DNA from: a virus
Lineage: Duplodnaviria > Heunggongvirae > Uroviricota > Caudoviricetes
IMG/VR virus record: IMGVR_UViG_2718218304_000001
Coordinates: 50,160 to 114,159 of that record
Strand: one strand, 5' to 3'
DNA: 64,000 bases
This document shows positions 54,405 through 55,172 of the stretch, one piece after another. Made by a program: the position numbers and the translations under genes. The notes beneath the pieces are model-generated. The model was not told the DNA's origin, did no database searches, and saw nothing but the letters and a program-made list of their open reading frames with translations. Numbering within the stretch: position 1 is the stretch's first letter; the number at the start of each line of letters is the position of its first letter.

Positions 54405-55172
54405 ATGGACGATTTATCGGTATACGCGAGATCATTGGATAAGGCTAAATACTATGTTTACTGTCTCTATGATACAGAAGACAAGATGAAAAGACCGTTT
54501 TACATAGGAAAAGGCAAATCGACTCGTTGTCTCGATCACATCAAGTATCCCGATGACTCTCCCAAATCCATGCGGATCAAAGAACTTTTGGCTAATAAAA
54601 AATTAGGCATAGATATACTTCGTCATGGTATGGATGAAACCACAGCCAAACTTGTTGAGGCGACATGCATCGACCTTATGGGGGTCGGAGAGCTTACGAA
54701 TAAGGTACGAGGAAGTGGTTCCATGATGGGCAGAATATCACTGGACGCCTACCATCACTTAGTGCTGCAAGAGGAAACTGAAATTGCTCCTGAGCACGCC
54801 GGTCTTGCCTTCCTGCTAAACAGCACCTACAAGTCAGGAATGTCCGCTCTGGCATTATATGAAGCTACGCGTGGCGTATGGGCAAAGGTTCCAAGAGACG
54901 AGAATCTCAAATATGCCTACGCTACATATGGTGGGCTGATAATGGAAGTTTATCAGATTGAATGCTGGGTCAAAGCCGGTTCTCAGCAGTACTTTACAAG
55001 GGATATAGCTCTTGGCCCCGACACAAAACGTTATGAATTTGTTGGCAGAATAGCCGATGAGCATATTAGAAAACTGTATGTAGGCAAATTAATCAAGAAG
55101 CCACCAAGCTACGGTAGCCCTTTTGTGAAGGTTGGGGTGGTTAGGACTGAACATAGTGTTAGCGCGGCATAA
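54405..55172 (+). CDS. GIY-YIG nuclease domain protein (free-standing homing-endonuclease-like)
   Basis: N-terminal YYVYCLYD...RPFYIGKGKSTRCLDH matches the GIY-(10-11)-YIG motif; 255 aa; no intron context seen. Confidence 0.55.
   Translation: MDDLSVYARSLDKAKYYVYCLYDTEDKMKRPFYIGKGKSTRCLDHIKYPDDSPKSMRIKELLANKKLGIDILRHGMDETTAKLVEATCIDLMGVGELTNKVRGSGSMMGRISLDAYHHLVLQEETEIAPEHAGLAFLLNSTYKSGMSALALYEATRGVWAKVPRDENLKYAYATYGGLIMEVYQIECWVKAGSQQYFTRDIALGPDTKRYEFVGRIADEHIRKLYVGKLIKKPPSYGSPFVKVGVVRTEHSVSAA

Follow-up and report, generated by a model that had tools for sequence, protein, structure and literature searches.

The window, by which we mean the whole stretch of 64,000 nucleotides analyzed here, is 95 to 99% identical to the Escherichia phages CMS-2020a and PhiR41_1 and to many non-mobilisable plasmids of about 110 kb, and sequence comparison identifies it as an SSU5-like phage-plasmid of E. 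coli. A plus-strand gene, here called the nuclease gene, had been placed between the helicase operon and the partition locus in a preliminary description of this DNA, and the minus-strand neighbors on both sides agree with that placement (Table 1). In an annotated relative, the order is DnaE-ligase-primase-helicase, nuclease, par, a DUF1778/GNAT toxin-antitoxin pair, lysis, Cor, and tail genes. The slot holds a minus-strand DUF2971 gene instead in SSU5 and Cyrano, and SSU5 also has two genes of no known function there.

Table 1. Features of the nuclease locus (window positions) and of the corresponding slot in SSU5 and Cyrano (positions of those loci)
Feature	Position	Strand	Remarks
Palindrome, second copy	1751-1805		
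DnaB-like helicase gene	51996-53336	minus	
Gene without known function	53397-54131	minus	
AT-rich near-perfect palindrome, 55 bp	54239-54293	.	CCTGCTTCCGTATATAT...ATATATACAGAAGCAGG; left border of the slot; found by inverted-repeat search
Cassette-specific upstream region	54294-54404	+	Missing from SSU5 and Cyrano; 99% identical in PhiR41_1 and pYPE3-114k
Nuclease ORF	54405-55172	+	ATG start, 255 aa
N-terminal part of the nuclease ORF, before the linker	54405-54686	+	
Flexible inter-domain linker, aa 95-106	54687-54722	+	pLDDT <50 in the AlphaFold2 model
Predicted CMoRE-type modification-sensing domain (aa 107 to ~247), short unstructured tail, and stop	54723-55172	+	
Cassette hairpin	55189-55228	+	12-bp perfect stem (55189-55200/55208-55219), 7-nt loop, then GATTTTTAA
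parB-like gene	55225-55584	minus	119 aa
ParA ATPase gene	55584-56252	minus	Pfam MipZ/AAA_31/CbiA
DUF2971 gene, SSU5 locus	2519-3277	minus	
DUF2971 gene, Cyrano locus	2513-3316	minus	

SSU5 and Cyrano share homology with the window up to 54293/54303, at the right end of the palindrome, and again from 55227, in the stop codon of the parB-like gene; because the homology breaks off and returns at these borders, the nuclease gene, its upstream region, and the downstream hairpin can be delimited by sequence as a cassette of about 930 bp (54294 to 55226). The GC content of the cassette, 43.5%, is mildly under that of its neighbors and no outlier. As the preliminary description had noted, the gene adjoins copy 2 of a palindromic element; the two copies with their GC clamps read CCTGCTTC...GAAGCAGG, and the palindrome arms gave four matches in the window where 0.1 was expected. 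Each copy sits just 3' of a transcription unit on the minus strand, with some 100 bp between it and the next minus-strand gene downstream, and each forms a hairpin on the minus strand followed by a U-rich tract (a long hairpin, then UCUUUUAAA; copy 2 folds at -30.2 kcal/mol, z = -7.7). SSU5, Cyrano, and PhiR41_1 have kept the palindrome, which resembles an intrinsic terminator of the minus strand, the alternative being a protein-binding site (operator or centromere). Upstream of the nuclease gene, a default promoter scan found no promoter, and any promoter is therefore putative only; a relaxed manual scan gave a weak sigma-70-like candidate, TTAAAT-18 nt-TAAAAT at 54341 to 54370 (8 of 12 positions), and a Shine-Dalgarno-like AAGAG lies about 9 nt 5' of the ATG. 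The hairpin at the other end of the cassette was missed by the default terminator scan and was found by inverted-repeat search and folding (-25.1 kcal/mol, z = -5.1, on the plus strand; -22.3 kcal/mol on the minus strand). The convergent parB-like gene has its stop codon 5 nt away from this hairpin, which is 100% conserved along with the cassette and looks like the intrinsic terminator of the nuclease gene. It had been described as bidirectional, which is half right: the hairpin is real, but its U-tract (GAUUUUUAA) is present on the plus strand only.

The nuclease gene behaves as swappable accessory cargo of SSU5-like phage-plasmids. It was found in 150 PLSDB plasmids (132 at at least 99% identity), in 105 of 5,426 complete E. 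coli genomes (about 2%), where it is plasmid-borne every time, and in 2 of 50,697 phage records, and of 739 plasmids with matches to its flanks, no more than 121 span the cassette. Because the alternative cargo, DUF2971, matches the PADLOC defense candidate PDC-S31 (1e-33 to 1e-41), the slot beside the par operon behaves as a defense/accessory hotspot of these elements. The backbone around it is mosaic, since the helicase allele is rarer than the cassette (megablast-level matches in 39 complete E. coli genomes, versus 105 for the nuclease) and since in PhiR41_1 the gene of no known function to the left is only 88% identical, versus 99.5% for the cassette; the helicase allele is a poor denominator for counting SSU5-like elements. 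Just past parA, on the plus strand, are a DUF1778 antitoxin gene (56532-56840) and a GNAT toxin gene (56848-57369) of the TacAT/KacAT type, annotated in this way in Cyrano and in RefSeq relatives. Other genes occupy that position in PhiR41_1 and SSU5, which may make it a second variable slot.

The start Met of the nuclease ORF is shared in an alignment of 39 homologues. The preliminary description had called the GIY-YIG motif clear, and this was borne out: Pfam PF22945 ("LEM-3-like GIY-YIG") matched residues 32 to 104 at 30.1 bits against a cut-off of 27 (E = 5.5e-7), and the motif reads Y16-Y17-V18-Y19 ... F32-Y33-I34-G35, plus R41, E85, and N99. Loss of the catalytic Tyr, Arg, or Glu on alignment, which had been named as the observation that would speak against the motif, was not seen; Y17, Y19, Y33-I34-G35, R41, E85, and N99 show no variation across the 39 homologues, which are 50 to 78% identical, and a clade-profile search recovered the "YYYREN" set in 117 of 121 relatives. 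In PHROGs the whole protein falls into phrog_5356 (1e-99), a family listed there without a function. The C-terminal 150 or so residues had been described as unassigned. This holds for Pfam, where searches of 21 family members at a threshold as lax as E <= 10 left the C-terminal half without a match, and for NCBIfam, where a search with the nuclease gave zero matches, but it does not hold for PADLOC, the PDB, or structure comparison.

In each of these, the match was to PD-T4-3, which Liu et al. renamed CMoRE (Nat Commun 2026; PMC12923530; structures 9U7U/9U7Z and 9U75/9U8D). CMoRE, a type IV restriction endonuclease made up of a single protein, gives E. coli about 10^5-fold protection against T2, T4, and T6 that does not involve abortive infection; the enzyme binds and cuts 5hmC and glucosyl-5hmC DNA, spares C and 5mC, and cleaves at C-N11/N9-G to leave 2-nt 3' overhangs (PMC12923530). 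Its N-terminal GIY-YIG domain has an additional tyrosine ("GIYxY-YIG"; Y17, Y19, and Y31), and the enzyme has an acidic autoinhibitory loop and assembles as a dimer of dimers (PMC12923530). PD-T4-3 is also active against Tevenvirinae in its native E. coli host (bioRxiv 10.1101/2024.12.20.629700). The PADLOC PD-T4-3 HMM (PDLC04031) aligned residues 11 to 231 of the nuclease with profile positions 11 to 238 of 256 (E = 1.3e-23), and phmmer against the PDB gave 9U7U/9U7Z and 9U75/9U8D as its sole matches (E = 2e-15; residues 12 to 230 against residues 17 to 243 of the CMoRE chain). BLASTP against an E. coli protein of the CMoRE clade gave 33% identity over 236 aa (E = 2e-20), and in a joint alignment the CMoRE clade is 26 to 31% identical to the nuclease. 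On the PADLOC HMM, the nuclease scores 82 bits and its own clade 78 to 98, compared with 364 to 463 for canonical members.

The features that characterize the family are present with one exception. [quoted passage not shown] Residues constant in both clades are Y17, Y19, F32, Y33, G35, G37, R41, H45, R73, H74, E85, D90, and N99 in the active site and H131, R156, W159, T174, W188, R209, F212, G214, A217, Y225, and P239 in the sensor domain. Sequence comparison therewith places the nuclease as a divergent member of the PD-T4-3/CMoRE family, in a clade that is a distant sister to the tested enzymes. The wider family is large: a profile search gave 3,182 representatives at E <= 1e-3, and a word-indexed search with the CMoRE sequence as query gave 6,282 proteins.

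An AlphaFold2 model of the full-length nuclease, built from the 39-sequence alignment, had a pLDDT of 82.6 and a pTM of 0.77, with residues 95 to 106 disordered; the inter-domain linker is likewise disordered in the CMoRE crystals (PMC12923530). Four PD-T4-3 entries ranked top when the model was compared with the PDB by Foldseek (probability 1.00, E = 2e-11, 245 aligned columns). The whole-chain TM-score against the PD-T4-3 crystals was only 0.35, which would most simply be explained by a domain orientation that differs between the monomer model and the crystal. Residues 107 to 255 were also modeled alone (pLDDT 87.2), and because the structure comparison, this separate model included, points to it, we assign the C-terminal half as a predicted CMoRE-type sensor domain. 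The sensor fold also resembles YTH domains (Mmi1, YTHDC1, YTHDC2, YTHDF1, and CPSF30), EVE domains (PH1033, THYN1 with 5mC DNA, 2ar1, and 2gbs), ASCH domains (5guq and AF2351), the N-terminal domains of McrB (6n0s and 6p0g), and VcaM4I, an EVE-HNH type IV enzyme. This likeness to the reader domains of other type IV enzymes is weak, and a sequence signal is absent.

Members of the clade were also found outside SSU5-type elements. The conjugative IncFIB plasmid pNFYY361-2 of Citrobacter freundii carries one at 5995 to 6735 (about 72% nucleotide identity), flanked by RelBE, IS5, IS26, and two recombinase genes, and the clade therefore travels on non-SSU5 backbones. Chromosomal members, in Providencia, Shewanella, and one other genome, are solitary genes in unrelated neighborhoods. 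A preprint reporting a DefenseFinder screen of SSU5-group phage-plasmids lists PD-T4-3 among the systems of elements from E. coli and Shigella; since databases contain a partial S. sonnei protein that is 100% identical, the PD-T4-3 of that preprint is most likely the same gene as the one described here. Distant homologues with two domains also occur in jumbo phages that infect Serratia, Pectobacterium, and Klebsiella; they are about 28% identical over 85 to 88% of the protein and annotated as GIY-YIG or "putative homing" nucleases (for example, Serratia phage Moabite, NC_048792.1, 6439-7125). These may be PD-T4-3-like modification-dependent nucleases used in phage-phage competition.

We favor, at a probability of roughly 80%, the reading that the nuclease is a modification-dependent defense nuclease that shields the lysogen from phages with hypermodified DNA. 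A nuclease-based exclusion factor had been one of two roles suggested in the preliminary description, and full-length homology to the experimentally characterized anti-phage PD-T4-3/CMoRE now argues for it. That the protein cuts DNA, that it does so in dependence on modification, that it acts against phages, and which oligomer it forms are all inferred by carrying over what is known of these relatives; a literature search with the RefSeq accession of the protein returned no reports, and the searchable literature contained no experimental test of any member of its clade. By analogy, the C-terminal domain would sense hypermodified bases in entering phage DNA, those sensed by the characterized relatives being the 5-hydroxymethyl- and glucosyl-hydroxymethyl-cytosine of T-even phages. 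The GIY-YIG domain (Y17/Y19/Y33, R41, E85, and N99, with a divalent metal) would then cut the modified DNA, probably in dimeric or tetrameric form. Such modification would be lacking from the chromosome of the host and from the phage-plasmid DNA, which would thus be spared; the infected cell would survive, and, with both of these DNAs unmodified, neither a methylase nor an immunity partner would be needed. The gain for the phage-plasmid would be that the lysogen, and hence the element, is shielded from virulent phages with modified DNA.

Together with the sequence distance, the truncated lid makes specificity and self-control the least certain part of this reading. In CMoRE the acidic loop is an insert of about 15 residues between alpha2 and alpha3 with four consecutive acidic residues, found according to the authors in "most" members, and without these four residues the enzyme becomes toxic and cuts unmodified DNA (PMC12923530). 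The nuclease has H45-IKYPDDSPKS where CMoRE has HMRGEVAATDDDELLSNK, so that its lid is 5 to 8 residues shorter and the acidic run is of two residues, D50-D51 only. Of the 121 relatives from the clade-profile search, 76 have the short lid, more than have any other state, and an acidic lid of 23 to 25 residues was found in the canonical clade only. Since CMoRE deprived of its lid acidic residues turns on unmodified DNA, the nuclease may discriminate self from non-self in a different way. Of the two dimer-interface residues tested in CMoRE, V92 corresponds to V84 in the nuclease, which is conserved, and L96 to C88, a constant Cys in the clade; compared with CMoRE, the nuclease has 2 additional residues in its beta1-beta2 loop. 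A more far-reaching proposal is that the nuclease stands for a large short-lid branch of PD-T4-3-like proteins without the acidic safety catch, which would consequently discriminate self from non-self by other means or read another modification, and that its sensor domain (and by homology also the "distinct fold" of CMoRE) is a remote PUA-like base-flipping reader of the EVE/YTH/ASCH/SRA type. We put this forward tentatively and consider it rather doubtful; if true, a PUA-like sensor would link the PD-T4-3/CMoRE family to other type IV enzymes.

The truncated lid also bears on the alternative that fares best, in which the family and the defense role are as proposed and the specificity differs: the nuclease would recognize Mom-type N6-carbamoylmethyl-adenine, arabinosyl-hmC, or another hypermodified base, or would spare its host in another mode. 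We regard this as possible, though on balance unlikely. It would accord with the merely 26 to 33% identity to tested enzymes and with indels specific to the clade in the sensor domain (the 4-aa STYKSGMS insert and the 195-208 loop). The family is, moreover, plastic: PD-T4-3Capno, a metagenomic homologue from Capnocytophaga that is 48% identical to PD-T4-3, cuts T4 DNA, but not that of T4-GT7, and also cuts Mom-modified Mu DNA (PMC12366544), and CMoRE cuts arabinosylated hmC DNA only weakly (PMC12923530). Against it, the core residues of the sensor domain are common to the CMoRE clade, and CMoRE contacts 5hmC through a main-chain oxygen at the domain edge (PMC12923530), because of which the sequence indicates no specificity in either direction. 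The prevalence of a suitable target weighs on the same side, as T-even phages prey heavily on E. coli.

The other role suggested in the preliminary description, that of a homing endonuclease, we consider very improbable. The gene would in that case encode a free-standing GIY-YIG enzyme of the Seg/I-TevI kind that cuts phage-plasmids lacking it and spreads through recombinational repair, as might be suggested by its intergenic position, its patchy occurrence among related genomes, the 99 to 100% identity of the cassette where the left flank is 88 to 98% identical, and the label "putative homing nuclease" on the jumbo-phage homologues. However, no NUMOD, Zn-finger, or HTH module was found with Pfam at E <= 10 across 21 family members, the C-terminal domain has the predicted CMoRE sensor fold, and members of the clade are solitary in bacterial chromosomes and in the IS-rich region of the IncFIB plasmid. 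Comparing presence and absence among related genomes, as had been proposed, showed that the slot is indeed variable, yet the gene-less relatives have other cargo (DUF2971/PDC-S31 among others) and no empty target site. Homing-type spread had also been considered from the identity of the cassette; it was rejected because conservation is just as high in the par genes across from the left flank and because the slot takes alternative cargo. A housekeeping nuclease for repair, recombination, or replication (UvrC-, Slx1-, or EndoII-like) is in our view just as improbable, for although the gene adjoins the primase-helicase genes and UvrC, Slx1, and T4 EndoII are among the structural matches of the N-terminal domain, most SSU5-like elements replicate without it, it is transcribed divergently from the replication genes with its own terminator, and its full-length match is a defense nuclease.

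As a modification-dependent defense nuclease, the protein adds a divergent new member to a family that is already known and was structurally solved not long ago, and the mobile element whose cargo slot contains its gene is likewise of a known type. An annotation of "hypothetical" or "LEM-3-like GIY-YIG," carried by about 2% of complete E. coli genomes, would thereby be replaced by a specific function, the restriction of phages with modified DNA, and SSU5-type phage-plasmids would have a defined slot beside the partition operon in which defense genes are swapped. This slot matters for host range in phage therapy because T-even-like phages are common therapeutic candidates. The truncated lid offers a natural experiment on how CMoRE-type enzymes spare host DNA, and a stable variant with another specificity could serve as a reagent for the detection of 5hmC or other modified bases.

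Of known systems, PD-T4-3/CMoRE (E. coli ECOR68, APEC O1, and O157:H7; K. pneumoniae) is the closest to the nuclease. Both are encoded by a single gene for about 250 aa, both have a GIYxY-YIG N-terminal domain with the catalytic Arg, Glu, and Asn and a flexible linker, and carriage on mobile DNA is common to both. Beyond its low identity (26 to 33%), low profile score (82 versus 364 to 463 bits), and lid, the nuclease differs in a 4-aa deletion in the beta-hairpin before RHG, in the 4-aa sensor-domain insertion (STYKSGMS), in its 195-208 loop and C-terminal tail, in the constant Cys of its clade in place of L96, and in being borne on a plasmid or phage-plasmid. PD-T4-3Capno is likewise a divergent member and has kept modification-dependent defense and DNA cleavage, so function in this family survives considerable sequence distance, although at 48% identity to PD-T4-3 it is nearer to the canonical clade than the protein described here. 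The GIY-YIG homing endonucleases (I-TevI and SegA-G) share the catalytic domain; unlike them and T4 EndoII, the nuclease has no sequence-specific DNA-binding module and has another C-terminal domain, and there is no cognate-target or empty-site pattern of the I-TevI/SegA-G kind. Other type IV modification-dependent enzymes (VcaM4I, EVE-HNH; PvuRts1I/MspJI, SRA-like; McrBC; and GmrSD) also join a reader domain to a nuclease, which is of the HNH, PD-(D/E)XK, or HxD type rather than GIY-YIG. The slot itself resembles the cargo slots of P2/P4-type prophages and satellites in having a fixed backbone position with alternative defense genes across relatives (here PD-T4-3-like or DUF2971/PDC-S31), and differs from them in belonging to an SSU5-type element and in lying between a conserved palindrome/terminator and the par operon.
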